A stretch of DNA of 64,000 bases from Planctomycetota bacterium (GCA_046350655.1 JAXMAB010000013.1:54785-118784); one strand, 5' to 3'; positions 21,703 through 59,089 are shown, counted from the stretch's first letter. The notes: generated by a model from the letters alone, not told the origin. A program made the numbers and translations.

Positions 21703-22533
21703 CTACTTCGACACAGGTCCGCGGGGCGGAGTTCCGGCGCTGGGGAACGACGGGGGCCGTCCGGCCACCGCCGACGCGAGGCCCGCGGCGGCGTCGGGGT
21801 CGGCGAGCGCGACGCGCTGCGACGTCGTCTCGTCCTCGAGCGCGTCGCCGAGGCTGCGCGTCGCGTCCTCGGCGAGGAGCCGCTTCACCAGCCGCAGCGC
21901 GGTGGCCGGCCCGGCGGCGACGCGGTGCGCGAGCGCGAGCGCCCGCGCGAGCACGGCCGCGCGCGGCGCGGTCTCGACGGCGAGGCCGAGACGCACCGCC
22001 TCGTCCGCCGTCACGGCGCGGTCCGGCAGCAGCAGCAGCGCCCGCGCGCGCGCGGCGCCGAGGAGGCGGACGAGGTGGTGCGGCGCGCCGCCGACCGGCA
22101 CGAGGCCGAGCGTCGCGTACCCCGTCGAGAACGCCACGTCGTCGGCGACGACGCGCAGGTCGCACGCGAGCGCGAGGTCGAACCCCGCGCCCGACGCGAC
22201 GCCCGCGACGGCGGCGATCGTCGGCTTCGGGCCCTCGGCGAGCCGGAGCACGGCCTGCTGCAGGACCGGCGACAGCCGCTCGAAGAACTCCTCGAGCCGG
22301 CCCGCGGCCGACGCGGCGGCGAGCGCGGCGACGTCGAACCCGCGGCAGAAGTCGGCCCCGTCGCCCGCGAGCACGATCGCGCGCACCTCGGCGGCGTGGA
22401 CGGCGTCCGAGACGGCGGCGCCGAGCGCGCGCACGAGCTCGGCGTCGAGCGCGTTGCCGGCGGCCGGGCGCGAGAGGGTCAGGACGCGCACGGGACCGTC
22501 GTCCCGCACGGTCAGGGGGGAGGCGGGGGGCAT
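21703..22533 (-). CDS. Enoyl-CoA hydratase/isomerase (crotonase) family, PaaG-like
   Basis: VLTLSRPAAGNAL, FCRGFD, KPTIAAVAGVASGAGFDLALACDLR; GGAGA RBS. Confidence 0.9.
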   Translation of the reverse strand: MPPASPLTVRDDGPVRVLTLSRPAAGNALDAELVRALGAAVSDAVHAAEVRAIVLAGDGADFCRGFDVAALAAASAAGRLEEFFERLSPVLQQAVLRLAEGPKPTIAAVAGVASGAGFDLALACDLRVVADDVAFSTGYATLGLVPVGGAPHHLVRLLGAARARALLLLPDRAVTADEAVRLGLAVETAPRAAVLARALALAHRVAAGPATALRLVKRLLAEDATRSLGDALEDETTSQRVALADPDAAAGLASAVAGRPPSFPSAGTPPRGPVSK

Positions 22534-22629: not shown

Positions 22630-24660
22630 ATGCCGACGCGCCCGCGGTCCGTCCTCCCGTCCATCCTGCTCGTGGCGTCCCTGCTCGCCGGCGTCGGGGG
22701 CACGATCCCGGCCGTCGTCGCGGAGGACGCGCCGCCGCCCAAGGCCCCGGAACCGCCGCCCAAGGCCCCCGAGCCGCCGCCGAAGGCGCCCGAGCCGCCC
22801 GCCATGGAGACGCCGCCGCCCGCGATGGGCGAGACGCCGCCGGCGATGGACGAACCGCCCGCGATGGACGCGCCGCCGGCGATGGCCGAGCCGCCGGCAA
22901 TGGAGACGCCCCCGGCGATGGCCGAACCCCCGGCGATGGCGCCGGATGCCGCGGCCATGGACGCGCCGCCCCCCGCGATGGCGGAGGCGCCGGCGATGGC
23001 CGAGCCGCCGCCGCCCCCGCCCGCCGACGCGGGCCCGGTCTCGCCCACCGGGCGGCCCGGGCTGCCGCTGCGGTACCGCACGCCCGACGAGGTGAAGGCG
23101 GCGCTCGACGCGATCGCGGCGCGGCCCGCGTGGGGGGCACGCAAGGCCCGGGTCGAGCGGTACGGCACGAGCGCCGGCGGGCGCCCGTTGTGGGTCCTCC
23201 GCATCGGCCCCGACGCCGCGCCGCAGGTGCTCGTGCACGGCGGGCTCGGCGCACGCGATGCGGCGGGCACCGTCGCGGCGATCGCGTTCGCCGACGCGAC
23301 CCTCCCCGACGTGACGCCGGCCGAGGGCGGCGCCGCGCCGCCGCCGCCGGACGACCGGGTCGGGTGGCTCGTGATCCCCGCGCCGAACCCGGACGCGCTC
23401 GCCGCGTTTCTCGAGGGCAAGCCGCGGCTGGGCGGACCCGACGTCGACCGCGACCAGGACGGCCGCGCCGGCGAGGACGGCCCCGACGACCTCGACGGCG
23501 ACGGCGAGGTCGTGTCGATGCGGCGCCGCGCGCCCGACGGCCCGTTCGTCGCGGACGACGCCCCGCCGAAGGACGGCAAGGCCCTGGGCGACCCGCGCGC
23601 GATGAAGGAGGCGGGCACGGACGCGCGCCGCGCCGCCAGCTTCACGCGTCCGGTCGAGGAGGGCAAGGACGACGACGGCGACGGCGACGTCAACGAGGAC
23701 CCGCCCGGCACCGACCTCGCGCGCAACCTGATGGGGGTGTGGGAGGAGATGGGCGCGTGGCCGGGCGACGGGCCGTTCCCGGGCAGCGCCCCCGAGGCGA
23801 AGGCGCTCCTCGACCTGTCGTGGGACACGCCGGCGCTGGTCGGCTGGTACGCGTTCACGTCGGAGGGCGCGCGGCTCGAGCGCGCGAGCGAGCGCGGGAA
23901 CGACGCCGACGCCGACGACGCGCTCTACGGCCGGCTCGCGGGCCCGTGGCGCGAGGCCGCCGGCGGCGTCGAGCTGCGCAAGGCGTCGGAGCGGCCCGGC
24001 GCGTCGGAGAACCGCGGCAGCGACCTCGACTGGGCGGCGCGCCACCTCGGCGTCCCGGCCCTGCGCGTCCCGGTGTGGCGCATCGCGAAGGAGGCGGGCA
24101 GCGCGCGCGACCGCCACGACCCCGACGAGGTCGACTGGCTGCTCTGGAACGACCGCGTGCTCGGCGGGAAGGGCTTCGTGCCGTGGCACGAGGTCGCGCA
24201 CCCGCAGCTCGGCACCGTCGAGGTGGGCGGCTGGAAGCGCTTCACGCGGTGGGAGCCGCCGGCCGACCTCCTGCCCGAAGCGGTGCGCCGCGTGATGCGC
24301 GTGCCGTCGGTCCACGCGGCGTTCGCGCCGCGGCTCGCGGTGCGCGTCGAGGTGACCGCGCGCGGCGCGGGCCTCGCGTCGCTGAAGGTGCGCGTCGACA
24401 ACGTGGGCGGCGCGGCGACGGACACGGTGCGCGCCGAGCGCGCGGCGCGCGCGACGCCGGTGCGGCTCGACTTCGCGCCGGCCGAGGGCGTCGAGGTGCT
24501 CGCGGGCCCGAGGTCGGTGGGGCTCGGCACGCTCCCCGCGGGGGGCGTCTCGGCGCCGACCGAGTGGCTCGTCCGGCGCGCGGGGCCCGGCCCGCTCGGC
24601 GTCGCCACCGCCACGCACCGCGTCGCGGGCGTCGCGACCGCCGAAGGGAGGCTGCCGTGA
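22630..24660 (+). CDS. Exported M14 carboxypeptidase homolog, predicted catalytically inactive
   Basis: Signal peptide; paralogous to the next gene (ERYGTSAGGRPLWVL, NPDAL, DxDxDG inserts, HPQLGTVEVGGW). HxxE is replaced by GARD, the third His by T, and the catalytic Glu by P. Confidence 0.8.
   Translation: MPTRPRSVLPSILLVASLLAGVGGTIPAVVAEDAPPPKAPEPPPKAPEPPPKAPEPPAMETPPPAMGETPPAMDEPPAMDAPPAMAEPPAMETPPAMAEPPAMAPDAAAMDAPPPAMAEAPAMAEPPPPPPADAGPVSPTGRPGLPLRYRTPDEVKAALDAIAARPAWGARKARVERYGTSAGGRPLWVLRIGPDAAPQVLVHGGLGARDAAGTVAAIAFADATLPDVTPAEGGAAPPPPDDRVGWLVIPAPNPDALAAFLEGKPRLGGPDVDRDQDGRAGEDGPDDLDGDGEVVSMRRRAPDGPFVADDAPPKDGKALGDPRAMKEAGTDARRAASFTRPVEEGKDDDGDGDVNEDPPGTDLARNLMGVWEEMGAWPGDGPFPGSAPEAKALLDLSWDTPALVGWYAFTSEGARLERASERGNDADADDALYGRLAGPWREAAGGVELRKASERPGASENRGSDLDWAARHLGVPALRVPVWRIAKEAGSARDRHDPDEVDWLLWNDRVLGGKGFVPWHEVAHPQLGTVEVGGWKRFTRWEPPADLLPEAVRRVMRVPSVHAAFAPRLAVRVEVTARGAGLASLKVRVDNVGGAATDTVRAERAARATPVRLDFAPAEGVEVLAGPRSVGLGTLPAGGVSAPTEWLVRRAGPGPLGVATATHRVAGVATAEGRLP
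22731..23025 (+). repeat. Intragenic low-complexity repeats: PPKAPE x3, then about 11 PAM-containing 6-7 aa units
   Basis: Direct translation PPKAPEPPPKAPEPPPKAPEPPAMETPPPAMGETPPAMDEPPAMDAPPAMAE... Confidence 0.9.
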
Positions 24661-26378
24661 GCCGCGTCCGTCGTCGTGCCGCCCTCGTCGTCGCGGCCCT
24701 CGCCGCGGCCCTGTCCCCGGCGCGGCCCGCGGCCGCCGAGGACCCGTCGCGCCCGCTCGTCGGGATCACGTTCGACCGCTACTACGACGGCGCGGCCCTC
24801 GAGAGCGCGCTGAAGACGATCCACGCGTCGTTCCCGCTGTTCACGCGCCTCGAGAGCATGGGCGCGAGCCGCGAGGGCCGCCCCCTGTGGGTGATCTCGG
24901 TGTTCGACCCCTCGGGGCCCCGCGCGATCGACGACCGGCCGGCGATGTACATCGACGGGAACACGCACGGCAACGAGGTGCAGTGCACCGAGGTCGCGTT
25001 GTTCACGGTGAAGTACCTGCTCGAGCGCAAGGACGCCGACCCGTGGATCGGCGCGCTGCTCAAGCGCGTGACGTTCCACGTCGCGCCGTGCGTCAACCCG
25101 GACGCCCGCGAGCGGTTCCTCCACCAGCCGAACGACGAGCACTCGCCGCGGCGCGTGCTCCGGCCCGTCGACGACGACCGCGACGGCCGCGTCGACGAGG
25201 ACGGCCCCGACGACGTGGACGGCGACGGCGACATCCTCACGATGCGCATCGCCGACCCGAACGGCGACCTCGTCGACGACGAGCGCGACGCGCGGCTCAT
25301 GCGCCCGGCGAAGCCCGGCGAGAAGGGCCGCTGGCGGATCCTCGGCGCGGAGGGGACCGACGAGGATGGCGACGGGCGCGTGAACGAGGACGGGCCCGGC
25401 GGCGTCGACCCGAACCGCAACTTCCCGTGCGAGTGGCGCCCCGATGCGGTCCAGGGCGGCGGCGGGCCGTACCCGCTGTCGGAGCCGGAGACGCGCGCGA
25501 CGGCGCTCTGGGTGCTCGCGCACCCGCGCATCGCGGCGGTGCAGAGCTACCACAACGCGGGGCGGATGATCCTGCGGCCGCCGGCCGCGCGGACCGACCG
25601 CGAGGCCGACTTCCCCGCGGAGGACAAGCGGCTCTACGACGAGCTGGCGAGCCGCGGGCAGCTGCTGCTGCCGGGCTACCGCTACATGCAGATCCGCGAG
25701 GAGCTCTACCAGGTGTGGGGCGGGTTCGTCGAGTGGACCGCGCACGCGCTCGGCGTGCCGTCGTTCACGAACGAGCTCTGGGGCCTCTTCGGGTGGGGGA
25801 CCTCCGTGGTCGGCGGCGACCTCGAGGCGCTGCGCTGGAACGACGTGGCGCTGCACGGCGCGGGCTTCGTGCGCTGGAAGAAGGTGAAGCACCCGACCTA
25901 CGGCGAGGTCGAGCTGGGCGGCTGGCGGCGCTACACGATCCGCTCGACGCCCGTCGACTTCCTGCCCGACCTCTGCGTGCGCAACTGCCTGTTCACCCTC
26001 GAGCACGCGAGCGCGGTGCCCGACCTCGACGTGCGCGTCGTCGAGCAGGCGCCGGCGGGCGGCGCGCGGCGCGTGCGCGTGGTCGTCGAGAACCGGAGCA
26101 TGATGCCGACCGCGACCGCGTGGGCCCGCCGCCACGGCCTCGTGCCGCCGGACCTCGTGGGCCTCGACGGCGCCGCCGTGCTGGCGGCGGTCGAGGTGCC
26201 CGGGCCCGGCCAGCCCGGCGTCCCGCTCCCCGTGAAGGAGGGGCGCGCGCGCCTCGTGGACGGCGTCGGCGGCGCGTCGTCGCGCACGCTCGACCTCTGG
26301 GTCGACGCGGCGAGCAAGCCCACCGCGGTCGTGGTCTCGAGCCGCCTCGGCGGGCTCCTGCGGGTGGCGGTGCCCTAG
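24657..26378 (+). CDS. Exported M14 zinc carboxypeptidase with Ca-binding DxDxDG inserts
   Basis: GTGA overlap; IDGNTHGNE (HxxE at 24966-24977), VDPNRNF, YPLSEPETRA, QSYHN, FTNEL. Confidence 0.9.
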   Translation: MSRVRRRAALVVAALAAALSPARPAAAEDPSRPLVGITFDRYYDGAALESALKTIHASFPLFTRLESMGASREGRPLWVISVFDPSGPRAIDDRPAMYIDGNTHGNEVQCTEVALFTVKYLLERKDADPWIGALLKRVTFHVAPCVNPDARERFLHQPNDEHSPRRVLRPVDDDRDGRVDEDGPDDVDGDGDILTMRIADPNGDLVDDERDARLMRPAKPGEKGRWRILGAEGTDEDGDGRVNEDGPGGVDPNRNFPCEWRPDAVQGGGGPYPLSEPETRATALWVLAHPRIAAVQSYHNAGRMILRPPAARTDREADFPAEDKRLYDELASRGQLLLPGYRYMQIREELYQVWGGFVEWTAHALGVPSFTNELWGLFGWGTSVVGGDLEALRWNDVALHGAGFVRWKKVKHPTYGEVELGGWRRYTIRSTPVDFLPDLCVRNCLFTLEHASAVPDLDVRVVEQAPAGGARRVRVVVENRSMMPTATAWARRHGLVPPDLVGLDGAAVLAAVEVPGPGQPGVPLPVKEGRARLVDGVGGASSRTLDLWVDAASKPTAVVVSSRLGGLLRVAVP

Positions 26379-28633
26379 TGGGCAAGAAGGCGCCGCGCCT
26401 GCAGACCACGCCCGCGCGGGTCGCCGCGCTGATGGGGGCGCTCATCGGCCTCGGCGTCGCGGCGGCGCTGTACGCGCTCCGGCCGACGAACGCGTTCACG
26501 GGCCTCGAGTGGCGCATCGTGGACGCGCGGACGCAGGCGTTCATGGGGCAGCGGAAGCCGGACCCCGACCTCGTGCTGGCCGAAGTCCGCGGCGACGACC
26601 TCGCCGCGATCAACCCGCTGGGCTACAAGTGGCCGTGGCCGCTCTTCGTGACCGCGAACGCGTTCGAGTGGTTCCGCGCCGCGGGCGCGCGCGCGGTCAT
26701 CGTGGACGTCTACCAGTTCGACCGGGGCGCGGAGCCCGAGGAGTACGGGTTCACGAACAAGGAGTCGAAGGAGTACCAGGACGCCAAGGCGATGGTGGAC
26801 GCCGCGGACGAGCTCGCGACGGCCTACCGACCTCCGACGCGGGTCGTGCTCGCCGTCGCGTTGTCGTCGAACCCTCCCGAGATCGGCCCGGCGGGCACCG
26901 CCATGCGCCGTCCGGAGTTCGAGAAGCGCCTGACGAGGATCCCGCCGATGGACGTACGTCCCGGCATGCAGCGGGAGCACGTCAACCTGCCGGTCCTCAA
27001 GCTGCTCGAGGCGTGCCACGGCGTCGGGTTCGCGTCGACGCTCGTGGACGACGACGGCGTCCTCCGGCGGGGCGTGCCGGTGGGGACCGCGGGCGCGCGC
27101 CGCGTGCCCTCGCTGCCCCTCGCCGCCGTGTTCGCGATGCGCGACGACGTCGAGGTCTCGGACGGCCGGATCCGCGTCGGGCACGCGGAACAACGGCTCA
27201 GCGACGACGGGACGTTCCTCGTCGCCTTTCGCGGGCCGTCGGACACGTACCCGCGCATCTCGCCGGCCCAGGCGGTGCTGGCGGGCGGCGAGCTCGCGAG
27301 CCTCAGGGCCGCGGGCGATCAGACGACGGTCCCGGGCTCGGGCGGCCTGAAGCCCGAGGACGTCCGCGGGAAGATCGTTCTCTGGGGCGTCAACCCGGAC
27401 GGGATCAAGGACGTGGTGTCGGCGCCCGTGGGCTCGGCGTTCTCGGGCCCCGAGTTCCAGCTGACCCTCATCGACAACCTGCTGCACGGCGACGGCCGGT
27501 GGGAGGTCTCGCGCACGACGAACGGCGTGGTGCTGCTCACCTTCTGCGCGTTGCTGGGGCTCCTCGGCGGCGTCGCGAAACGCCGCGGCGTGTTCCTGTC
27601 GGCGACCCTGCTCGCCGCGGCCGTCGTCTGGGGGGGCGGCTACTGGGCCTTCGGGAAGGGCGTCTCCTTCGACCTCTTCACGCCGTCCCTCGGCATCCTG
27701 ATGACCTACGCCGGCGTGCTCGCGTTCAAGACGCTGACGGAGGGCCGCCGCAACAAGTGGCTCGAGGGCACGTTCAGCCAGTACCTCGCGCCCGCCGTCA
27801 TCAAGGCCATCAAGGCCGACCCGTCCATGCTCGCCCTCGGCGGGCGGCAGCGCGAGGTGTCGGTCCTCTTCAGCGACGTGAAGGGCTTCACGACGATCAG
27901 CGAGACGCTGGGCCCCGAGAACACGGTGCGCCTGCTCAACGACTACCTCTCGCGCCAGTCCGAGCCGGTGCTCCAGAACGACGGCGTGATCGACAAGTTC
28001 ATCGGCGACGCCGTCATGGCGTTCTTCGGCGAGCCGGTGGCGCACGCCGACCACGCGCTGCGCGCCTGCCGCGCCGCCGTCGAGAGCCTGGCCGTCCTCG
28101 CGGGCACGCAGCCGCTCGCCAGGGAGCTCGGCCTCGGCACGCTCGTCAACCGCATCGGCGTCGCGTCGGGCCCCGCGACCATCGGCAACATCGGCAGCGA
28201 CCGCCGCTTCAACTACACGGCCATCGGCGACACCGTGAACTTCGCGAGCCGCCTCGAGGGCGCCAACAAGGCGTTCGGCAGCCGCATCCTCCTCGCCGAC
28301 GCGACGTACCAGGCGGCCAAGGACGCCGTGGTGGCGAAGCCGCTCGCGAAGCTGATCGTCGTCGGCAAGACCGAGCCGGTGCCCGTGCACGAGCTGATCG
28401 CGCTCGCGGAGTCGGCCTCGCCGGCGCAGAAGGCCCACGCGGAGGCCTTCGGGCGCGCGCACGCGCTCGTCCTCGCCGACGACCTCGACGGCGCGGAGAC
28501 GGCGCTCGCCGAGGCCGAGAAGCTCGTGCCGGACGACGGCCCGTGCCGCTGGCTCGGCGGCATCATCGACGGCCTGCGGCTCGGGATGATCGCGCGGCCG
28601 TGGAACGGCGTGTACGTGCTCGAGAGCAAGTAG
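26378..28633 (+). CDS. CHASE2-domain membrane class III adenylate cyclase
   Basis: TAGTG overlap; TM, CHASE2 (WPWPLF, DDDGVLRR, GPEFQLTLIDNL), 3 TM; catalytic FSDVKGFT, IDKFIGDAVMAFF, NYTAIGDTVNFASRLEG. Confidence 0.93.
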   Translation: MGKKAPRLQTTPARVAALMGALIGLGVAAALYALRPTNAFTGLEWRIVDARTQAFMGQRKPDPDLVLAEVRGDDLAAINPLGYKWPWPLFVTANAFEWFRAAGARAVIVDVYQFDRGAEPEEYGFTNKESKEYQDAKAMVDAADELATAYRPPTRVVLAVALSSNPPEIGPAGTAMRRPEFEKRLTRIPPMDVRPGMQREHVNLPVLKLLEACHGVGFASTLVDDDGVLRRGVPVGTAGARRVPSLPLAAVFAMRDDVEVSDGRIRVGHAEQRLSDDGTFLVAFRGPSDTYPRISPAQAVLAGGELASLRAAGDQTTVPGSGGLKPEDVRGKIVLWGVNPDGIKDVVSAPVGSAFSGPEFQLTLIDNLLHGDGRWEVSRTTNGVVLLTFCALLGLLGGVAKRRGVFLSATLLAAAVVWGGGYWAFGKGVSFDLFTPSLGILMTYAGVLAFKTLTEGRRNKWLEGTFSQYLAPAVIKAIKADPSMLALGGRQREVSVLFSDVKGFTTISETLGPENTVRLLNDYLSRQSEPVLQNDGVIDKFIGDAVMAFFGEPVAHADHALRACRAAVESLAVLAGTQPLARELGLGTLVNRIGVASGPATIGNIGSDRRFNYTAIGDTVNFASRLEGANKAFGSRILLADATYQAAKDAVVAKPLAKLIVVGKTEPVPVHELIALAESASPAQKAHAEAFGRAHALVLADDLDGAETALAEAEKLVPDDGPCRWLGGIIDGLRLGMIARPWNGVYVLESK

Positions 28634-28834
28634 GGGACGACGCCGGCCGCCGGGCCTCGCGGTCCCCCCGCCACCACCGGGGCCCCGCCCTCCGCGCGGG
28701 CGGGCCTCCGGCCGGGTCCGTGGCCGCCGCCGACGGGAGGACGGTGCGGCAACGGCGACCTTGCCCGCGCCCCGGGCGAGGGTAGGCTCGGAGGGTCCGG
28801 GCGCCCCGGTGGGGAGCGCCATGAGGGTCGTCCC

Positions 28835-29344
28835 ATGAAGTTGCGCGTCCTGGCCCTGTCCTGCGTCCTGGGGTTCGCGGCCTTCGCGGCCGCCGACCTC
28901 CTGCCGGGCGAGACCCGCGCCGTGCAGGTGCGCGGCGGCGTCCCGGCCTGGAACGAGCCGCGGGTGCTCTCCGGCAAGGCCGGCCTGATCCCGTTCGCGA
29001 CCCGCGTGACGGTGAACGAGGTGAAGGCGCCCTGGGTGCGCGTCACCGCGGACAACGGCGTGACCGGCTGGGTGCGCACGTCCGACATCGTGGAGCCCGG
29101 GTCGCTGACGGGCACGGCCGCGCGCGCCGCCGCGGGCCGCTCCGGCGGCGCGGGCACGGCCGACGTGTCGCTCGCCGGCCGCCAGTTCGACGAGACGCTC
29201 GAGGGCGAGCTCAAGACCTCCGACGCCGACCTCCAGCGGGCCTACCCGCTCGTCGACGCGCTCGAGGCCAAGTCCTTCAAGCCCGGCGACCCCGAGGTCG
29301 AGAAGTTCCTGCGCGACGGGCGCCTCGGCGGGGAGGTCAAGTGA
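28835..29344 (+). CDS. Exported SH3b-domain protein
   Basis: Signal peptide; IPFATRVTVNEVKAPWVRVTADNGVTGWV; C-terminal VEKFLRDGRL. Confidence 0.75.
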   Translation: MKLRVLALSCVLGFAAFAAADLLPGETRAVQVRGGVPAWNEPRVLSGKAGLIPFATRVTVNEVKAPWVRVTADNGVTGWVRTSDIVEPGSLTGTAARAAAGRSGGAGTADVSLAGRQFDETLEGELKTSDADLQRAYPLVDALEAKSFKPGDPEVEKFLRDGRLGGEVK

Positions 29345-30300
29345 CCATGCGCCGCACCCATCTCGTCCCGTCCGTGCTCCTCGCGGCGCTCACCGTCGTG
29401 GGCTGCCGCGCGGGCGACCTCGCCCGCAACGGCGCGCGCAACGCGTTCGGCCGCGGCGGCGAGCGCGCCGCCGACCTCGTCGGCGCCTTCGTCCAGAACG
29501 AGGCCGACCTCCGCGACCAGATGGGCATCCAGTTCTCGCCCGAGCAGGAGTACTTCCTCGGGCGCGGCGTCGCGGCCCAGGCCATCGCCCGCTACGGCCT
29601 CGACCCCGACGAGACGCGCCAGCGCTACGTGCGCCTGATCGGCGCCGGGCTCGTCGAGGCGGCGCCCCGCGTGCGCGCGACCTTCGGCGGCTACCACTTC
29701 GCGGTGCTGAACAGCCCCGAGGCGAACGGCGTGTCCGGCCCCGGCGGCTTCGTCCTCGTGACGCGCGGCGCCGTCGAGCGCGCCCGCAACGAGGACGAGC
29801 TCGCGGGCGTCCTCGCCCACGAGATCGCGCACGTGTCGCTCAAGCACGGCGAGGCGGTCATCCGCGCCAGCGCGCAGTGGCAGACCGGCTACACGAACGC
29901 GTTCCGCATCGGCGCCGCGGCCGCCGGCTTCTCGGCGCGCGAGCAGAACAAGCTCACGGGGCTCTTCCGCGACAGCGTGAAGGGGCTCGCCGACGCGCTC
30001 GCGAACCAGGGCTACGGCTCCGCCGCCGAGGAGAAGGCCGACCGCGAGGGGTCGGCGATCCTCTACGAGGCCGGCTACGACGCCGGCGCGATCTCGGCCT
30101 ACCTGAAGGCGATGCCGGACCGTCCCCAGACCAACTGGAGCGCCCACCCCGACAGCGCGAGCCGCGGCCGCGCTCGCGCCGTTCGTCGCGACGTACGGTG
30201 GCCCGTTCGACGGCGTCGGCGCGGCGACCCGCGCCGCGCGCTTCCGAAGGCGATGCTCGCCCCGAAGGCCGTCGCGGAGCGGCGGCCCGCGGGACGCTGA
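29341..30300 (+). CDS. M48-family metallopeptidase lipoprotein (3' end has two compensating indels)
   Basis: Lipobox LTVVG-C; YHFAVLNSPEANG...PGGFVLVTRG, ELAGVLAHEIAH, EEKADREG, AGYDAGA, SAHP. Confidence 0.88.
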   Translation: MTMRRTHLVPSVLLAALTVVGCRAGDLARNGARNAFGRGGERAADLVGAFVQNEADLRDQMGIQFSPEQEYFLGRGVAAQAIARYGLDPDETRQRYVRLIGAGLVEAAPRVRATFGGYHFAVLNSPEANGVSGPGGFVLVTRGAVERARNEDELAGVLAHEIAHVSLKHGEAVIRASAQWQTGYTNAFRIGAAAAGFSAREQNKLTGLFRDSVKGLADALANQGYGSAAEEKADREGSAILYEAGYDAGAISAYLKAMPDRPQTNWSAHPDSASRGRARAVRRDVRWPVRRRRRGDPRRALPKAMLAPKAVAERRPAGR

Positions 30301-30346
30301 CCCGCGGGACGCTGACCCGCTGGGCACGGGGTCCGGTCGAGGGCGC

Positions 30347-30386
30347 GGGACCGCGAGGCCCGCCGGCCGCCGGGCCTTGCGGTCCC
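30347..30386. repeat. 40-bp REP-like palindrome (GGGACCGCGAGGCCCG family)
   Basis: gggaccgcgaggcccg-ccggccgc-cgggccttgcggtccc between convergent genes; near-identical copy at 59038-59076. Confidence 0.75.
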
Positions 30387-30503
30387 GGGGGTCGGGCCGC
30401 CGTCCCGTGAGCCGCGGCGCCGTGGGCGCACCGTCCGACGGTGCCACGGCCGACGGTTCACGGTCCGGTGCGCTTCGCGAGGTCGGACGCGCCTTCCCCG
30501 AGG

Positions 30504-31265
30504 TCAGACGTCGAGGACCTCGGCCTGGCGCAGGACGCGCAGGCGCGGGTCGTGGAGCGCGGTCAGCTCGGCCACGACCTCGTGGTGGTCCTCGGGCTTG
30601 ATGTGCGTGACGAGGACCGGCACGTCCTTCTTGAGCTTCTTGAGCTCGAGGGCGAGCAGGCGCGGCGTCAGGTGGAGGCTCGCCTTCGCGAGCCCGTCGT
30701 AGCGCGAGGGGAACGAGCACTCGACGAGGACGGCGGCGAGGTCGTCGGCCGCGTTGGCGGCGTTCCACATCGGATCCGTCGCGTACGTGTCGCCGCAGAT
30801 CATGAGGGAGCGGCGGCCGCGGCGGACGAGGTAGGCCTGCGACGGCACGGCGTGGACGAGGGGGATCGAGGTGATCTCGAAGTCGAGGATCGGGCGGGTG
30901 TCGCCCGGGTCGAGGGGGAGGAACTGGACGAGCGGGACGCTCTCGCGGACGGCCTCGGTGAAATCGGGCCAGATCCGGTCGTTGAAGAGGTGGCTGCGGA
31001 CGGTCTCGAGGGTGTACGACGAGCCGTGGATGCGGCAGGGGACCGGGGGGCCGCCGAAGCGGTTCGCGAGGAACAGGGGCAGGGTCCACACGTGGTCGAG
31101 GTGACCGTGCGTGAGGAGGACGTCCTGCACCCGGCGCTGGGCGGTGAAGTCGAGCGCGGTGGTGAGAGCCCCCGCGTCGACGGCGAGGACCTCGTCCACG
31201 AGGTAACAGGAGAGGAGGGCCCCCGGGGCGCTGCCGCCCGCGCAGCCCAGCACGCGAAGTCGCAT
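30504..31265 (-). CDS. Class II (metallo-beta-lactamase fold) 3',5'-cyclic nucleotide phosphodiesterase
   Basis: LRVLGCAGG, LAVDAG, LLTHGHLDHV (HxHLDH signature), HLFNDRIWPDF, ICGDT, VECSFP, HLTP, THIKP. Confidence 0.85.
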   Translation of the reverse strand: MRLRVLGCAGGSAPGALLSCYLVDEVLAVDAGALTTALDFTAQRRVQDVLLTHGHLDHVWTLPLFLANRFGGPPVPCRIHGSSYTLETVRSHLFNDRIWPDFTEAVRESVPLVQFLPLDPGDTRPILDFEITSIPLVHAVPSQAYLVRRGRRSLMICGDTYATDPMWNAANAADDLAAVLVECSFPSRYDGLAKASLHLTPRLLALELKKLKKDVPVLVTHIKPEDHHEVVAELTALHDPRLRVLRQAEVLDV

Positions 31266-31349
31266 GGGGAGGCAGCGTACGGGGGGGGCGACCGGAACGG
31301 AAGGACCGGGAGGAGGTGGCGGGGGACGCCGGGGGCGGATACCCTCCCG

Positions 31350-33002
31350 GTGGAGGTCGTGCCGAACGTGTCGCTCGCGATCTCGGGCCTGCTCGGATGG
31401 ACCGCCGGGGCGGCGGTGGCGGTGGTCGCCCTGCTCGTGGCGATCTCGTTCGTCAAGCTCCTCGCGCGGATGAAGGTGGCGTGGTGGCCGTCGCTCGTCG
31501 CCCCCGCGGCGGCGGTGGGGCCCGCCCTCGGCCTGCTGGCCGGCGCCTGGCTGACCCAGGGCGAGCTGGCGGCGGTGGCGTTCTGGGCGCCCGAGGGGCA
31601 CCCGGCGGCCCGGGTGGGGTGGAGCCTGCTCCTCTTCTTCTCGGCGACCGGGGCCTACGGGCTCGTGACCCGGTTCCTGACGTCGCGGCTGGTGGTGGAG
31701 GAGCTCGGGCTGCGGATCCCGGAGGTCTTCATCGACCTCGGGCGGTTCGTGCTCTGGGTGATCATGGTGTTCGTGATCGTGGGGGGGATCTGGCAGCGGT
31801 CCGACCTCTTCACGGCGCTGTTCACGGCCGGCGCGGCGACGACGCTGGTGCTCGGCCTGGCGCTGCAGGACACGATCAAGAACTTCATCGCCGCGTGGGC
31901 CATCGTCGGCGAGGGCGTCTACACGATCGGCGACTGGGTGTGGCTGGGCGAGGACGAGGGCGAGGTGGTGTCGGTCACGCGGCGGACGACGAAGATCCGC
32001 ACGCGGTCGGGCGACATCGTGACCGTCCCGAACAACCTCGTCACCGCGTCGAAGGTGCGCAACCAGTCGAAGCCGACGCGGGCGCACGCCGAGAACGTCC
32101 GCGTCCAGGTGGCCTACGACGCGCCGCCGAACCGCGTGCGCGACTGCCTGCACCGGGCGGTGCGCGAGGTGCCCAAGCTGCTGCAGTCGCCCGCGCCGGC
32201 GTTCCGGCTGCGCCTGTTCGCGGACTCGGGCGTCGAGTACGAGGCGAAGGTGTGGATGGACGACGTCGGCGCGCGCGACGACATCCTCTCCGAGCTGCGC
32301 GTACAGATCTGGTACCACTTCCAGCGCGAGGGGATCGAGTTCCCGTACCCGGTGCGCGAGATCCGGCAGCGGGTCGCGGCCGCCGAGCCGCCCGAGGTGA
32401 AGGCCCGGGCGATCTTCACGCGGCTGAAGAGCGTGCCGTTCTTCGGCGCGCTGCCCGAGGACGTGCTCGCGGTGCTGGCGCGCGACGCGAGCATCGTCCG
32501 GTTCGGCGCGGGCGAGCGGGTGGTCCTGCAGGGCGAGCCGGGCGACGCGTGTTACGTCGTGGACGACGGGAGGCTGTCGGTCCTGATCGCCGAGGGGCGG
32601 ACGGAGCAGCAGGTCGCGGTGCTCTCGACGGGGGACCTGTTCGGCGAGATCAGCCTCCTGACGGGGGAGCCGCGGGCCGCGACGGTCCGGGCGATCGGCG
32701 ACGCGCGGCTGGTCGTGGTCGGTTCGTCGTCGCTGCGCACCGCCCTCGAGCGCTCGCCGGAGCTGGCGACGCAGCTGGCCGAGGTGGCGACGCTCCGCCG
32801 CGAGGGCCTCCTCGAGGCGCGGGCGGCGCTGGACGCGGCGGCGCGCGCCCGCGTGGACGCGCAGAGCCACCGGTTGCGCGAGCTGATCCGGCGCTTCTTC
32901 AAGCTCCCCGACGCGCCGACGGCGCCGGCCGCCGCGCGGCCGCCCGCCGGCGCCTCCGACCGGCCCGGGAACGGGGTTGCAGGCGGCCCACCCGCCCCGT
33001 AG
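31350..33002 (+). CDS. MscS-family channel with C-terminal cyclic-nucleotide-binding domain (bCNG-like)
   Basis: TM helices; LGLALQDTIKNF, IGDWV, GEVVSVTRRTTKI, VTVPNN; cNMP domain VVLQGEPGDACYVV...GDLFGEISLLTGEPRAATVRA. Start uncertain (31350-31368). Confidence 0.9.
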   Translation: MEVVPNVSLAISGLLGWTAGAAVAVVALLVAISFVKLLARMKVAWWPSLVAPAAAVGPALGLLAGAWLTQGELAAVAFWAPEGHPAARVGWSLLLFFSATGAYGLVTRFLTSRLVVEELGLRIPEVFIDLGRFVLWVIMVFVIVGGIWQRSDLFTALFTAGAATTLVLGLALQDTIKNFIAAWAIVGEGVYTIGDWVWLGEDEGEVVSVTRRTTKIRTRSGDIVTVPNNLVTASKVRNQSKPTRAHAENVRVQVAYDAPPNRVRDCLHRAVREVPKLLQSPAPAFRLRLFADSGVEYEAKVWMDDVGARDDILSELRVQIWYHFQREGIEFPYPVREIRQRVAAAEPPEVKARAIFTRLKSVPFFGALPEDVLAVLARDASIVRFGAGERVVLQGEPGDACYVVDDGRLSVLIAEGRTEQQVAVLSTGDLFGEISLLTGEPRAATVRAIGDARLVVVGSSSLRTALERSPELATQLAEVATLRREGLLEARAALDAAARARVDAQSHRLRELIRRFFKLPDAPTAPAAARPPAGASDRPGNGVAGGPPAP

Positions 33003-33042
33003 GTTCAACCTCGACGTCCTGTCCGATGCGGCGGAGCCCTCG

Positions 33043-35034
33043 ATGAACAACAACCCGTTCCTGGCGGTGGTCAAGATCCTGTTCACGGCGGTCCTGGCCG
33101 TGGCGGTCTTCCTGGCCTTCTGGCAGAAGACGCACGTCGAGGACCAGCTCGCCCGCCTCCAGGCGACCAGCGACGACAACGCCAGCGCGCTGAAGGACCT
33201 CCGCCGCGACCTCAACAAGCTCGCCGTGGCCCCGCCCGGCCCCGCCACAGGGCCGGCGCCGAAGCGCGAGTGGGGCTGGGAGCTCAACGCCTCGCTGGAC
33301 GCCGCCGCGGACCCGTCGAAGCCGGTGGGCACGGCCGGCCGCTACAAGAACTTCCTCTCGCTGGACCCGGACCCGGAGTACCCCGCGGACGCGAAGCCGG
33401 GCGGCGTGGTCTCGGTCCCGTACGGCGAGGACCCGAAGGGGTTCAACTTCATCGTCGAGAACGCGGCGGAGCTCACCGAGCAGCTCGAGCAGTACGTCAC
33501 CGACTCGCCGGCGTCGTCGCACTGGGCGAACCCGTACAAGTTCGCGCCCGCGCTCTGCTGGCGCATCGAGGTGAGCCCGGACTTCCGCGAGTACACGCTG
33601 TTCTTCCGGCGGGACGTCCTCTGGCACGAGCCCCCGGTGGACCTGAAGGCCTACCCGCACCTGAAGGGCGAGCACCGCGTGACCGCGCGGGACTACAAGT
33701 TCACGCTCGACATCATCAACAACCCGCAGACCGACTGCGCGCCTCTCCGTGGCTACTACACGGAGATGGAGGACTCGCGCCTGATCGACGACTGGACCGT
33801 GGTCGTCCGCTGGAAGGAGACGGTCTGGCACTCGATCGACTTCACCATCGGTCGCGCGCCCATGCCGGAGTTCATCTTCGGCTACTCGGAGAGCGGCAAG
33901 CGGCTCCCGCCGGAGACCATCGGCCAGCAGTTCAACGAGCACTGGTTCAACCAGAAGGGCGTCTGCGGCTGCGGCCCGTACCGGATGGTGTCGTACGACG
34001 TCGGCAAGTGGATCACGCTCGAGCGCTTCGAGGACTACTACCGCGCGGCGGAGGGCGTGCGCTACCCGATCGACGGCCGGCGCATGCTCATCTACAAGGA
34101 CCCGGAGACGGCGTTCCTGAAGCTGCAGGCCGGTGAGCTGTCGCTGACGGGCCTCACGTCGGCCCAGTACAAGAAGGCCTTCGTCTCGCAGACGCCGCCC
34201 GCGGCCTTCGCCGAGAAGCGGCTGCTGGGCTACAAGTACCCGCGGTCGTCGTACTACTACTTCGGGTGGAAGAACACGCACCCCCTCTTCCGCGACCCGA
34301 ACGTCCGCCGCGCCCTGGCGCTGGCGTGCAACCGGTTCGACATCGCGAGCAAGATCTTCATCGGCCGCATCGTGCCGATGGCGGGGCCCGTGTTCCCCGG
34401 CAGCCCCCAGGCCGACCCGGAGATGAAGCCCCTGCCGTTCGACATGAAGCAGGCGGAGACCCTCCTCGACGAGGCCGGCTGGAAGAAGAACGCGTCGACC
34501 GGCATCCGCGAGAAGACCGTGGACGGCGAACTGCGGAAGTTCGAGTTCAAGATCCTCTGGTCGGCGCCGAGCCCGGACGTCGAGGCCGCGATCAACCAGT
34601 ACAAGAACGACCTCCTGTCGATCGGGATCGTGATGGAGTCGGACCCCGTCGAGTGGACGCTGTGGCAGAAGCGCGCGGCCAACCGGCAGTTCGAGGCCGT
34701 GTTCGGCGGCTGGTCCACCAGCGGCTGGGACCACGACTTCGACCAGATCTGGCACAGCCGGCAGATCGCGCAGCCGAACGGGTCGAACTACATCGAGTTC
34801 TCGGACCCCGAGGTCGATCGCCTCTCCGACGACCTGCGCCGCGAGATGGACCCCGAGAAGCGCATCGAGAAGGTGCGCAAGATCGGCCGCATCCTGTTCG
34901 AGGCGCAGCCGACCTGCTTCATCGGGTGGGCGACCGTGTTCGGCGCCCACGACAAGGACCTGCAGAACGTGACCGGGCACCTGTTCAAGACCCGCCCGAA
35001 CCTCCGCACGTTCCCCATGTGGTTCGCCCGGTAG
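33043..35034 (+). CDS. Peptide/nickel ABC transporter substrate-binding protein (family 5), N-terminal membrane anchor
   Basis: VTARDYKFT, GCGPYRMVSYD, FRDPNVRRALALA, GSNYIEFSDPEVDRL. Confidence 0.9.
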   Translation: MNNNPFLAVVKILFTAVLAVAVFLAFWQKTHVEDQLARLQATSDDNASALKDLRRDLNKLAVAPPGPATGPAPKREWGWELNASLDAAADPSKPVGTAGRYKNFLSLDPDPEYPADAKPGGVVSVPYGEDPKGFNFIVENAAELTEQLEQYVTDSPASSHWANPYKFAPALCWRIEVSPDFREYTLFFRRDVLWHEPPVDLKAYPHLKGEHRVTARDYKFTLDIINNPQTDCAPLRGYYTEMEDSRLIDDWTVVVRWKETVWHSIDFTIGRAPMPEFIFGYSESGKRLPPETIGQQFNEHWFNQKGVCGCGPYRMVSYDVGKWITLERFEDYYRAAEGVRYPIDGRRMLIYKDPETAFLKLQAGELSLTGLTSAQYKKAFVSQTPPAAFAEKRLLGYKYPRSSYYYFGWKNTHPLFRDPNVRRALALACNRFDIASKIFIGRIVPMAGPVFPGSPQADPEMKPLPFDMKQAETLLDEAGWKKNASTGIREKTVDGELRKFEFKILWSAPSPDVEAAINQYKNDLLSIGIVMESDPVEWTLWQKRAANRQFEAVFGGWSTSGWDHDFDQIWHSRQIAQPNGSNYIEFSDPEVDRLSDDLRREMDPEKRIEKVRKIGRILFEAQPTCFIGWATVFGAHDKDLQNVTGHLFKTRPNLRTFPMWFAR

Positions 35035-35046
35035 GCCCGGGGGCCC

Positions 35047-36489
35047 GTGTTCACCTACGTCGTCAAGCGCGTGCTCCTGATGATCCCGACCCTGTTCGGG
35101 ATCTCGCTCGTCATCTGGCTGGTCATGACCGCGGCGCCGGGGCGCCCCGGCCGTGACTCGAAGGGCATGGGCGACGACGTCAAGGCCGAGCAGGACCCCG
35201 CCAAGCGGAAGGAGCAGAACGAGTCGCAGCGTCTGTTCCGCCGCCAGTACGGCCTCGACCGCCCGCTGCTCTTCAACACCTGGCCGTGGCTCTCGAAGGA
35301 CGACCTGCGCCCGATGGTGCGGACCGCCCAGGCGCCGATCGAGGAGGTCGGCATCGAGGCGAAGCGCACGGCGATGGAGCAGCTCGAGGACTACGGGCAC
35401 TACGCCGTCCCGCCGCTCGTCGAGCTGCTCGGCGCGACCGAGGGCGCGGAGCAGGACGCGATCCTGGCGTGGCTCCGGTTCTCGGCCACGCAGAACACGA
35501 CGATCGGCGACGACGCCGCGACGACGGCGGCGAACCAGCGGATCATCCGCGAGAACGAAGAGGTCAAGGCCCTGATGTGGCCGGAGGGCGCGCCGGCCTC
35601 CGCGCGCGCACCGGTCGTCGCGGGCTGGCAGGCCTGGTTCCGCGAGCGCGCCGAGCGGTGGGACTGGTCGTTCGCCGAGAAGGTGCGGCTGCTGCTCACG
35701 GACACCCAGTTCGGCACCTACTGGGCGCGGCTCCTGCGCCTCGACCTCGGGAAGAGCCACCGGTACAAGCGGCCGGTCCTCGACCTGGTGCTCGAGCGGC
35801 TCCCGCTGACCGCGAGCCTCGCCTTCGTCTCGATCCTGCTCGTGTACCTGCTCGCGATCCCGCTCGGCATCTGGTCGGCCGTGAAGCCGTACACGTTCGC
35901 CGACCGGACGATCTCGATCAGCCTGTTCCTGCTCTACTCGCTCCCGTCGTTCTTCATCGGGACGGTGCTGCTCCGCGCGTTCACGATCGGCGACCCGATG
36001 CGGTGGTTCCCGACCGGCGACATCGCCTCCACGCAGGCGCCGCAGTGGAACTCGTGGGAGCGCCTGAAGGACGTGCTCTGGCACGTCACGCTGCCGCTCG
36101 TGACGATGACCTACGCCGGCCTGGCCGGTCTCTCTCGGTTCGCGCGGACGGGCATGCTCGACGTCATCCGGTCCGACTTCGTCCGGACCGCCCGGGCCAA
36201 GGGCCTCGGCGAGACCGAGGTGATCCTGCGCCACGCCGCCCGGAACGGCATGATGCCGATGGTGACGCTGCTCGCGGGCCTGCTGCCGAGCCTCGTCGGC
36301 GGGTCGGTCGTCGTCGAGTTCATGTTCAACCTCAACGGCATGGGCCTCCTGACCCTCGAGGCGATCAACAACCGCGACTACAACATCGTCGTCGGCGAGT
36401 CGCTGATCGTCGCCGTCCTCACGCAGGTCGGCATCCTCGCCTCGGACATCCTGTACGCCGTGATGGACCCGCGGGTGTCCTACAAGTGA
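35047..36489 (+). CDS. Peptide ABC permease (OppB/DppB-like) with large extracytoplasmic insert
   Basis: MFTYVVKRVLLMIPTL; DLGKSHRYKRPV; EAA loop DFVRTARAKGL. Confidence 0.92.
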   Translation: MFTYVVKRVLLMIPTLFGISLVIWLVMTAAPGRPGRDSKGMGDDVKAEQDPAKRKEQNESQRLFRRQYGLDRPLLFNTWPWLSKDDLRPMVRTAQAPIEEVGIEAKRTAMEQLEDYGHYAVPPLVELLGATEGAEQDAILAWLRFSATQNTTIGDDAATTAANQRIIRENEEVKALMWPEGAPASARAPVVAGWQAWFRERAERWDWSFAEKVRLLLTDTQFGTYWARLLRLDLGKSHRYKRPVLDLVLERLPLTASLAFVSILLVYLLAIPLGIWSAVKPYTFADRTISISLFLLYSLPSFFIGTVLLRAFTIGDPMRWFPTGDIASTQAPQWNSWERLKDVLWHVTLPLVTMTYAGLAGLSRFARTGMLDVIRSDFVRTARAKGLGETEVILRHAARNGMMPMVTLLAGLLPSLVGGSVVVEFMFNLNGMGLLTLEAINNRDYNIVVGESLIVAVLTQVGILASDILYAVMDPRVSYK

Positions 36490-59037: not shown

Positions 59038-59076
59038 GGGACCGCGAGGCCCGCCGGCCGCCGGGCCTCGCGGTCC
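59038..59076. repeat. REP-like palindrome, copy of 30347-30386
   Basis: gggaccgcgaggcccg-ccggccgc-cgggcctcgcggtcc, 13 nt after the sulfatase-like gene stop. Confidence 0.75.
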
Positions 59077-59089
59077 GGGAAGGGGATCG

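Follow-up and report, generated by a model that had tools for sequence, protein, structure and literature searches.

A probable receptor-to-channel cyclic AMP circuit built around a conserved SH3b, M48 and CHASE2 cyclase gene triad in the Planctomycetota

Introduction

The CHASE2 cyclases CyaD1, CyaD2 and CyaK of Sinorhizobium meliloti raise the level of cyclic AMP (cAMP) upon perception, via NsrA, of a proteinaceous signal from the plant, and act through Clr (PMC13001267). The subject of the present study is another set of genes around such a cyclase, located in a 64,000-nucleotide stretch of DNA from a Planctomycetota bacterium (GCA_046350655.1, JAXMAB010000013.1:54785-118784), the whole of which is referred to as the window. 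Positions 22630-33002 hold a cassette of seven genes encoding an M14 peptidase pair, a CHASE2 cyclase, an SH3 protein, an M48 lipoprotein, a phosphodiesterase (PDE) and an MscS-type channel with a cyclic nucleoside monophosphate (cNMP)-binding domain. The cyclase is like those of S. meliloti in being a class III enzyme with a CHASE2 sensor and an envelope partner. However, the partner in S. meliloti is the outer-membrane beta-barrel NsrA and the output the Crp-like Clr, whereas the cyclase of the window is partnered by an SH3b protein and an M48 protease and has a channel as its linked output.

Each of the remaining components also has described relatives. With BepA and LoiP of Escherichia coli, the M48 protein of the window shares the HExxH domain, a lipoprotein or periplasmic location and a similar fold; unlike BepA, it lacks a TPR domain, is paired (and in its paralogues fused) with a dedicated SH3b protein, and has a gene linked to that of a cyclase. 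Receptor cyclases together with class-II PDEs are found in Myxococcus xanthus, where CyaA and CyaB, with PdeA and PdeB, take part in osmotic adaptation, a role that would fit an MscS-type output. The sensor domains of CyaA and CyaB differ from that of the CHASE2 cyclase considered here, and we know of no report of a linked channel, SH3 or M48 partner in that system.

Channels that combine an MscS core with a C-terminal cNMP domain constitute a family termed bacterial cyclic nucleotide-gated, or bCNG, for which a recent review gives a mostly cyanobacterial distribution, an unknown role and no structure (PMC13591265, 2026); for the family, that review cites Caldwell 2010 and Malcolm 2012. The channel of the window has the same build, with an intact phosphate-binding cassette, but it belongs to a high-GC uncultured lineage and is encoded beside a presumed source and a presumed eraser of cAMP. 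The PDE resembles class-II enzymes such as yeast PDE1 in its metallo-beta-lactamase (MBL) fold, HxHLDH motif and PF02112 match. Its THGHLDH motif likewise fits the atypical class-II signature [T/S]HxHxDH defined for Rv1339, CpdA of Corynebacterium glutamicum and YfhI of Bacillus subtilis (PMC9293780). It is, however, only a distant relative of the characterized class-II enzymes, and its activity is a predicted one.

An earlier note, made from the sequence of the window alone, had proposed that the region is an undescribed, self-contained cAMP circuit in which periplasmic proteolysis is linked to a gated channel. We consider it probable that the region is indeed a receptor-to-channel cAMP circuit, composed of the cyclase, SH3b and M48 genes as a sensory triad together with the PDE and the channel, as judged from gene neighbourhoods and conserved residues. 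The grounds for this reading, and for narrowing the earlier one, are presented below.

The genes of the cassette

With a G+C content of 70-80%, the window contains long open reading frames (ORFs) in every frame. Genes were called from a codon-position GC plot, translation and Pfam matches, with NCBIfam as a second set of profiles, and the cassette reads as follows.

22630-24660, + strand: exported M14-like pseudo-peptidase (Pfam M14 weak, 26.5 bits)
24657-26378, + strand: exported M14 carboxypeptidase of active type (Pfam M14, 129.5 bits)
26378-28633, + strand: predicted CHASE2 receptor adenylate cyclase (Pfam CHASE2, 104 bits; Guanylate_cyc, 69 bits)
28835-29344, + strand: exported protein of probable SH3b type (Pfam SH3_3, 22.0 bits; cut-off 27)
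29341-30300, + strand: M48 zinc-metalloprotease lipoprotein (Pfam M48, 68.6 bits; lipobox VVGC)
30504-31265, - strand: predicted class-II (MBL-fold) cyclic-nucleotide PDE (Pfam PDEase_II, 65.6 bits, and MBL)
31359-33002, + strand: predicted bCNG-type channel (Pfam MS_channel_2nd, MS_channel_3rd and cNMP_binding)

The inventory and coordinates of the earlier note were borne out by the codon-position GC plot and Pfam, as was its observation that the cyclase gene overlaps the M14 stop, the junction reading TAGTG with an overlap of one base between that stop and the GTG start of the cyclase. The sequence marks on which it had relied for the cyclase (Lys in DKFIGD and Thr in YTAIGD as the mark of ATP-specific class IIIb enzymes), the PDE (an HxHLDH motif) and the channel (a GE...RAA phosphate-binding cassette) are all present as well, and their conservation is described below with each protein.

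The SH3b-M48-CHASE2 cyclase triad

Full-length homologues of the cyclase occur in nearly all genomes of the family to which the window belongs (f1), and the proteins of the window were mapped onto 20-kb regions around 20 cyclase homologues of that family. The cyclase, SH3 and M48 genes were found together in 19 of these 20 loci, in two orders. Loci with the order cyclase-SH3-M48 are orthologues of the module in the window, and those with the order SH3-M48-cyclase form a paralogous clade, which counts among its members another CHASE2-cyclase module of the window's own genome (contig C4:425119-429100; locus L037, 8913-12912) with neither a PDE nor a channel gene nearby. In other families of the phylum, whose genomes range from 47 to 74% GC, the M48 gene is located beside a CHASE2 cyclase gene in 17 of 20 loci, and the small gene adjoining them encodes an SH3_3 protein.

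The search was also extended to all bacteria with one genome per species, using the alignment of the M48 partner as the query and home-made hidden Markov models (HMMs) to read the contents of the 80 loci recovered. Thirty-five of these hold SH3, M48 and CHASE2 plus cyclase, seven hold partial sets, 18 have only SH3 and M48, and 20 have M48 alone; the last two groups are mostly the weakest M48 matches and have unrelated neighbours. The full and partial loci are distributed over the Planctomycetota, Thermodesulfobacteriota, Kiritimatiellota, Verrucomicrobiota, Latescibacterota, Spirochaetota, Nitrospirota, Acidobacteriota, Bdellovibrionota and Pseudomonadota. One carrier of the triad is the cultivable Desulfobotulus alkaliphilus (locus L077). 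Given the presence of the triad in 35 of 80 loci over so many phyla, these neighbourhoods show SH3b, M48 and the CHASE2 cyclase to be an ancient and widely distributed three-gene unit. Distant SH3/M48 pairs of Betaproteobacteria were considered as further members of the module and excluded, their neighbours being unrelated. As to the phylum, the cyclase tree is ambiguous, since one locus of the same phylum is nearly identical to a MAG labelled Planctomycetia and another is sister to a Vicinamibacterales MAG; the DUF1559 expansion characteristic of Planctomycetia was not present in the genome of the window or in three other genomes of its phylum.

The cyclase consists of an N-terminal transmembrane (TM) helix, a periplasmic CHASE2 domain (PF05226, 104 bits, residues 30-395), a TM segment and a class IIIb catalytic domain, followed by a tail of approximately 100 amino acids at the C-terminus, with hydrophobic segments at residues 12-35 and from about residue 380. 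In an alignment of 77 CHASE2-cyclase homologues, D500, K540, D544, T614, N621 and R625 are each kept in 76 or 77 sequences, the Lys of DKFIGD (K540) in 77 and the Thr of YTAIGD (T614) in 76. Following established class III nomenclature, we take D500 and D544 to be the metal-binding Asp residues, the Lys/Thr pair, with Thr in place of Asp, to specify the substrate and the Asn/Arg pair to stabilize the transition state. By these residue criteria, the protein is a class IIIb, ATP-specific cyclase. Its best solved relatives are the adenylate cyclases 6fht, 3r5g and 1wc1, and its CHASE2 domain has no sequence relative among solved structures.

The SH3 protein of the window falls under the SH3_3 cut-off (22.0 against 27 bits), and homologues of it score 35 and 40 bits. 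In an AlphaFold2 model (predicted local distance difference test, pLDDT, 78), the SH3 barrel is predicted with confidence, the linker is disordered and the remainder forms a bundle of helices. The barrel superposes at approximately 2 Å on the SH3b domains of NlpC/P60 cell-wall peptidases and of a phage endolysin, weakly by Foldseek statistics (E of about 3e-3), and Foldseek returned no structural match for the helical tail. The homologues and the structure model thus support the SH3b identity of the protein. Its family, when aligned, is ordered as a signal peptide, a beta-domain, a variable linker, a near-invariant A-G-K/R-G-F-x-x-x-x-E motif and a helical tail ending in F..G-G/r-L; the motif can also be written A-G-R/K-x-F-D/N...E and the end of the tail F..GrLG. 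A profile search returned 1,165 clusters at E<=1e-30. Multi-SH3b repeat proteins dominate these hits, and the size of the family is thus only bounded; about one-fifth of the top 150 matches are full-length proteins of approximately 160 amino acids.

In the M48 protein, H160, E161, H164, E230 and D234 are invariant in 20 homologues, the zinc motif reading HEIAH, and among the NCBIfam models those of BepA and LoiP match it only distantly. In all eight paralogous f1 loci, SH3 and M48 are encoded as a single ORF of 459-554 amino acids, which constitutes classic gene-fusion evidence for their joint action. The fusion in the second module of the genome comprises 541 amino acids and has lost the lipobox. 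It was modelled with a pLDDT of 84 and a predicted template modelling score of 0.81, and its helical tail, at a pLDDT of 91-97, is raised relative to the model of the separate protein, which suggests that the tail packs on the protease. The M48 part of the model resembles 3c37, a minimal M48 peptidase from Geobacter, and the protease domain of BepA.

This last resemblance is among the reasons to consider that SH3 and M48, rather than generating the signal, may serve in the maturation or quality control of the CHASE2 receptor or another envelope protein, much as BepA does for outer-membrane proteins, the cue being, for example, osmolarity or membrane state. A Planctomycetota locus in which SH3 and M48 lie directly beside a bCNG gene in the absence of a cyclase (L061), and the Betaproteobacteria pairs with no cyclase neighbour, would agree with such a role. 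Against it, the close M48 subfamily is almost always found next to a CHASE2 cyclase, and the near-invariant motif, situated in a disordered SH3 linker, resembles a chaperone surface less than it does a site of regulated cleavage or docking. On balance, we regard a maturation or quality-control function as unlikely.

Other genes recur next to the triad. Among its 102 nearest neighbours in other lineages (L041-L140), FadL/TodX-type proteins were counted five times, and GAF-sigma54 activators, PP2C/SpoIIE phosphatases, MlaE and DUF1425 lipoproteins three times each. These may be alternative partners or outputs of the triad.

The phosphodiesterase and the channel as companions of the triad

The predicted channel has a multi-TM N-terminus, an MscS pore and beta-domain core, and a C-terminal cNMP-binding domain, with PF00924, PF21082 and PF00027 matched in that order on one polypeptide. 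Its phosphate-binding cassette, FGEISLLTGEPRAATVRA, retains FGE...RAA intact. Of the cassette residues, G80, E81 and R90 are conserved in all 19 channel homologues and A92 in 18 of the 19, in the pattern G-E...R-(A/S)-A. The nearest match of the cNMP domain is the RI subunit of protein kinase A, and that of the core is E. coli MscS; no solved chain covering both halves was found, and the NCBIfam match is to a distant MscS model.

The PDE carries the metal motif THGHLDH on an MBL fold and matches PDEase_II (PF02112) with 65.6 bits against a cut-off of 23.7; HxHxDH, H138, D159 and H221 are invariant in 16 of 16 homologues. Its best solved relative is yeast PDE1 (4ojv), followed by 6kns. The identity to yeast PDE1 is low, the NCBIfam model of cyclic-nucleotide PDEs returns 42.6 bits against a cut-off of 400, and the NCBIfam models of PhnP and RNase Z also match weakly, so that a different hydrolase, either RNase Z/PhnP-like or a 2',3'-cNMP PDE, might be encoded rather than a 3',5'-cAMP PDE. 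The clear PF02112 match, the agreement of the metal motif with both the class-II HxHLDH and the atypical signature (PMC9293780), and the repeated adjacency of the gene to cyclase and cNMP genes speak against this, and we find such an assignment improbable.

Within f1, the PDE gene adjoins the triad in nine of the 20 loci, and a divergent PDE-channel pair exists in four genera. Beyond the family, seven loci (L061, L067, L071, L088, L106, L114 and L123) have an MscS-cNMP gene less than 7 kb away from the module; these belong to a Planctomycetota metagenome-assembled genome (MAG) with the SH3-M48-channel set mentioned above, a member of the Latescibacterota, one of the Verrucomicrobiota, a 'delta proteobacterium' with the full set including a divergent PDE, a Myxococcales MAG and two Acidobacteriota MAGs. 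This amounts to seven of the 80 M48-anchored loci, where no more than 0.27 would be expected, an excess well outside chance. In HMM scans covering the loci in full, a class-II PDE was placed beside the module in L088, L102, L104 and L113. The gene directly after the cyclase in three loci of the Thiobacillus group encodes a full-length class-II PDE homologue. Pfam confirmed six of the channel loci (all except L088) and the PDE of L104, the rest being based on the HMM scans. When Pfam matches were counted over the triad's 102 nearest neighbours in loci beyond f1, cNMP_binding was matched three times, MS_channel three times and MBL five times. Moreover, across 401 genomes sampled evenly from the phylum, cyclase and channel co-occur in 13 genomes outside f1, where 3.5 would be expected (approximately 3.7-fold). 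A divergent PDE-channel pair, its genes 360-390 nt apart, is also present in two genera of another family (f24), away from the triad.

In the cyclase tree, the enzymes of the M48-anchored companion loci branch at a distance from the clade of the window, and their genes are ordered differently; the associations therefore have more than one origin. By this comparison of loci, the PDE and the MscS-cNMP channel are shown to be recurrent companions of the triad in unrelated lineages. The grouping of cyclase, SH3, M48, PDE and cNMP-MscS put forward in the earlier note is therefore upheld, the triad being cross-phylum and the PDE and channel having joined it repeatedly. Conservation of the neighbourhood, which that note had named as a check, was recovered for the triad at each level of the survey; the adjacency of the channel is optional.

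The circuit reading and the evidence against it

The genome of the window, which is 90% complete, encodes nine class III cyclases, one class-II PDE (its sole PF02112 protein) and two PF00027 proteins. The only class-II PDE and one of the two PF00027 proteins are encoded 93 nt apart, in the cassette. The second PF00027 protein is small and has no other Pfam domain (contig C10:313680-314402; locus L149, 9480-10202). Apart from the channel, no PF00027 protein with a recognizable DNA-binding (Crp-like) or other output domain was found in this 90%-complete genome. With receptors counted as PF00027 proteins only, the channel may be a main cAMP effector of the genome.

Several observations weigh against the circuit as proposed. 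From the ratio of nine cyclases to one class-II PDE and two PF00027 proteins it follows that the PDE and channel are probably common to all of the cyclases, which argues against a private or insulated circuit and for a hub instead. In four other f1 genera, an orthologue of the channel is encoded elsewhere in the genome, and hence adjacency is optional; outside f1, no adjacency of cyclase and channel was found in the 401-genome sample of the phylum, and the statistics for their co-occurrence in that sample (Fisher P 4e-6) ignore phylogeny. The synteny within f1 reaches into an unrelated Opp/Dpp-type ATP-binding cassette (ABC) operon, so that part of the linkage is plain inheritance. Over-expressed bCNG channels gave E. 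coli no protection against hypo-osmotic shock, and what part cyclic nucleotides play in their gating is not known (PMC13591265). The M48 protein of the window might be impaired, approximately 28 of its C-terminal codons being scrambled. Finally, the support for the circuit rests on gene neighbourhood and residues.

The scrambling of the M48 gene was recognized by reference to a sister genome of 94-99% identity and a genome of the same genus. Between approximately 30160 and 30255, the gene has lost 2 nt, lost a further 3 nt in frame and gained 2 nt, all within about 85 nt. This apparent compensated double frameshift, at about 30167-30250 and near the 3' end, may be either a real mutation or an error of assembly; after it, the native frame and stop are regained. 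The scrambled codons hold the family-conserved tail '...FVATYGGPFDGGVG..RAARF'.

The gene counts, the displaced channel orthologues, the lack of cyclase-channel adjacency in the other families of the phylum sample and the extension of synteny into the ABC operon would all be expected if only the triad were a functional unit, with the PDE and channel serving as cAMP housekeeping, kept nearby by inherited synteny, and cAMP acting globally via other receptors. Against this explanation stand the channel or PDE genes that adjoin the module, in varied orders, in no fewer than five further phyla, with the excess of channel loci over expectation given above, and the 3.7-fold co-occurrence of cyclase and channel. 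We therefore judge it unlikely, and the circuit composed of triad, PDE and channel remains the preferred reading, with the PDE and channel in the position of a shared hub. The terms 'self-contained' and 'local cAMP' of the earlier note are accordingly doubtful, given the nine cyclases, a second CHASE2 module among them, the one class-II PDE and the two cNMP proteins. Its term 'undescribed' holds in part: no paper describing the five-gene combination was found in the full-text literature searched, but every part belongs to a known family. The parts are thus known, and it is their arrangement that was not found described in that literature.

Proposed mechanism and the M14 pair

In the circuit envisaged, SH3b and M48 would assist the CHASE2 domain as a periplasmic co-sensor. 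A ligand, either a protein or part of the cell wall, would be bound by the SH3b barrel, and M48 would cut that ligand, the conserved linker motif of the SH3 protein or the receptor itself, thereby setting the activity of the cyclase. The cAMP produced would bind the C-terminal domain of the channel and open or sensitize the MscS pore, changing the flux of ions or solutes, and the PDE would reset the signal. In its boldest form, SH3b, M48 and CHASE2 would compose a proteolysis-gated periplasmic switch reporting the state of the wall or envelope, with peptidoglycan or a protein as the ligand of the SH3b barrel and the A-G-K/R-G-F motif of the linker as its site of cleavage or docking, and cAMP would open an MscS-type valve. 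This version is offered tentatively, as a possibility that we would not yet call probable.

The M14 pair had been included in the earlier note among the candidates for signal processing. The first copy (22630-24660) has its HxxE ligands, third His and catalytic Glu replaced, as do its orthologues (6/6), and these residues mark it as an M14-fold pseudo-enzyme. In the second (24657-26378), HGNE, SYH and FTNE are kept, again in 6/6 orthologues. Both proteins carry two Asp-rich inserts of DxDxDG type, which are calcium-binding-like, and the pseudo-enzyme of the window has a Pro/Ala/Met-rich repeat linker of approximately 110 amino acids that is absent from its orthologues.

In the full version of the earlier note, the M14 pair together with M48 would digest envelope or external peptides, and the products would be the ligand of CHASE2. 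The overlap of the M14 stop with the cyclase start, the presence of the pair upstream of the triad in nine of 11 orthologous f1 loci, the Opp/Dpp-type peptide-binding protein encoded downstream and the response of the S. meliloti CHASE2 cyclases to a signal of protein nature (PMC13001267) are in keeping with this idea. However, in most f1 relatives (L023-L031) a CNNM/CorC-type transporter gene with a CBS pair, on the opposite strand and divergent from the cyclase, separates M14 from it. This gene is missing in the window's genus, its loss accounting for the M14-cyclase overlap and for the translational coupling of the two, and in genera g3 and g10 its place is taken by a shorter, unrecognized gene encoding approximately 320 amino acids. 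Furthermore, L024 and L025 lack the M14 pair, one copy is by its residues catalytically dead, and the 25 Pfam families with the most matches over the triad's 102 nearest neighbours in other lineages do not include M14. A peptide ligand generated in this way thus seems to us quite improbable. The adjacency is confined to f1, where it is mostly interrupted by CorC, and was not seen beside the triad elsewhere; the M14 pair is better regarded as a family-specific neighbour than as a general component of signal processing, and any role for it in the circuit is speculative.

Organization of the locus and neighbouring elements

The order cyclase-SH3-M48 of the window differs from the order that is commoner elsewhere, SH3-M48-cyclase. 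The cassette is a rearranged instance, with the cyclase first, the PDE inverted, the M14 pair coupled on and an apparent compensated double frameshift in M48. GTGA start/stop overlaps occur at both the M14-like/M14 and the SH3/M48 junctions. Being on the opposite strand, the PDE gene is convergent with M48 and divergent from the channel gene, from which it is separated by 93 nt; no CRP-like palindrome was found by eye in this intergenic region. The GTG start of the channel gene is preceded by GGAGG, 5 nt upstream. A scan of the region returned no sigma-70-like promoters, and terminator-like sites only at chance level.

The cassette is followed by the Opp/Dpp-type ABC transporter operon (32977-36489), which encodes a 685-amino-acid SBP_bac_5 protein and then a permease, and which lies beside the PDE gene across f1; in one subclade of four genera, the channel gene is inserted between the two. 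A GC-rich palindrome resembling repetitive extragenic palindromes (REP), GGGACCGCGAGGCCCG...CGGGCCTYGCGGTCCC, with a stem of up to 17 bp, is matched nine times in the window against 0 expected. Its positions are 695, 11385, 16087, 28642, 30347-30386, 42500 and 59038-59077, and the two copies examined are both intergenic. The upstream neighbour of the cassette and these two copies are as follows.

21703-22533, - strand: enoyl-CoA hydratase gene, upstream neighbour (codon-position GC plot and translation)
28642-28666, no strand assigned: copy of the REP-like palindrome just after the cyclase stop
30347-30386, no strand assigned: full REP-like palindrome with a 17-bp stem, between the convergent M48 and PDE genes

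The element at 28642-28666 folds no better than shuffled sequences; it may be a partial terminator between the cyclase gene and the SH3-M48 pair. The palindrome at 30347-30386 is probably a bidirectional terminator or a stabilizer.

Significance

The CHASE2 sensor domain is widespread, and its ligand is not known. The gene set described here names two candidate periplasmic partners for it together with a chain from input to output that can be tested. For the bCNG channels, it offers a candidate source and a candidate eraser of cAMP as testable partners. The genome of the window is itself a natural experiment, with its rearranged cassette, a second module in which SH3 and M48 are fused, and a single class-II PDE. 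If the proposed switch and valve were true, CHASE2 would gain its first ligand logic and the bCNG channels a first physiological role, in a route of cAMP signalling that bypasses transcription.

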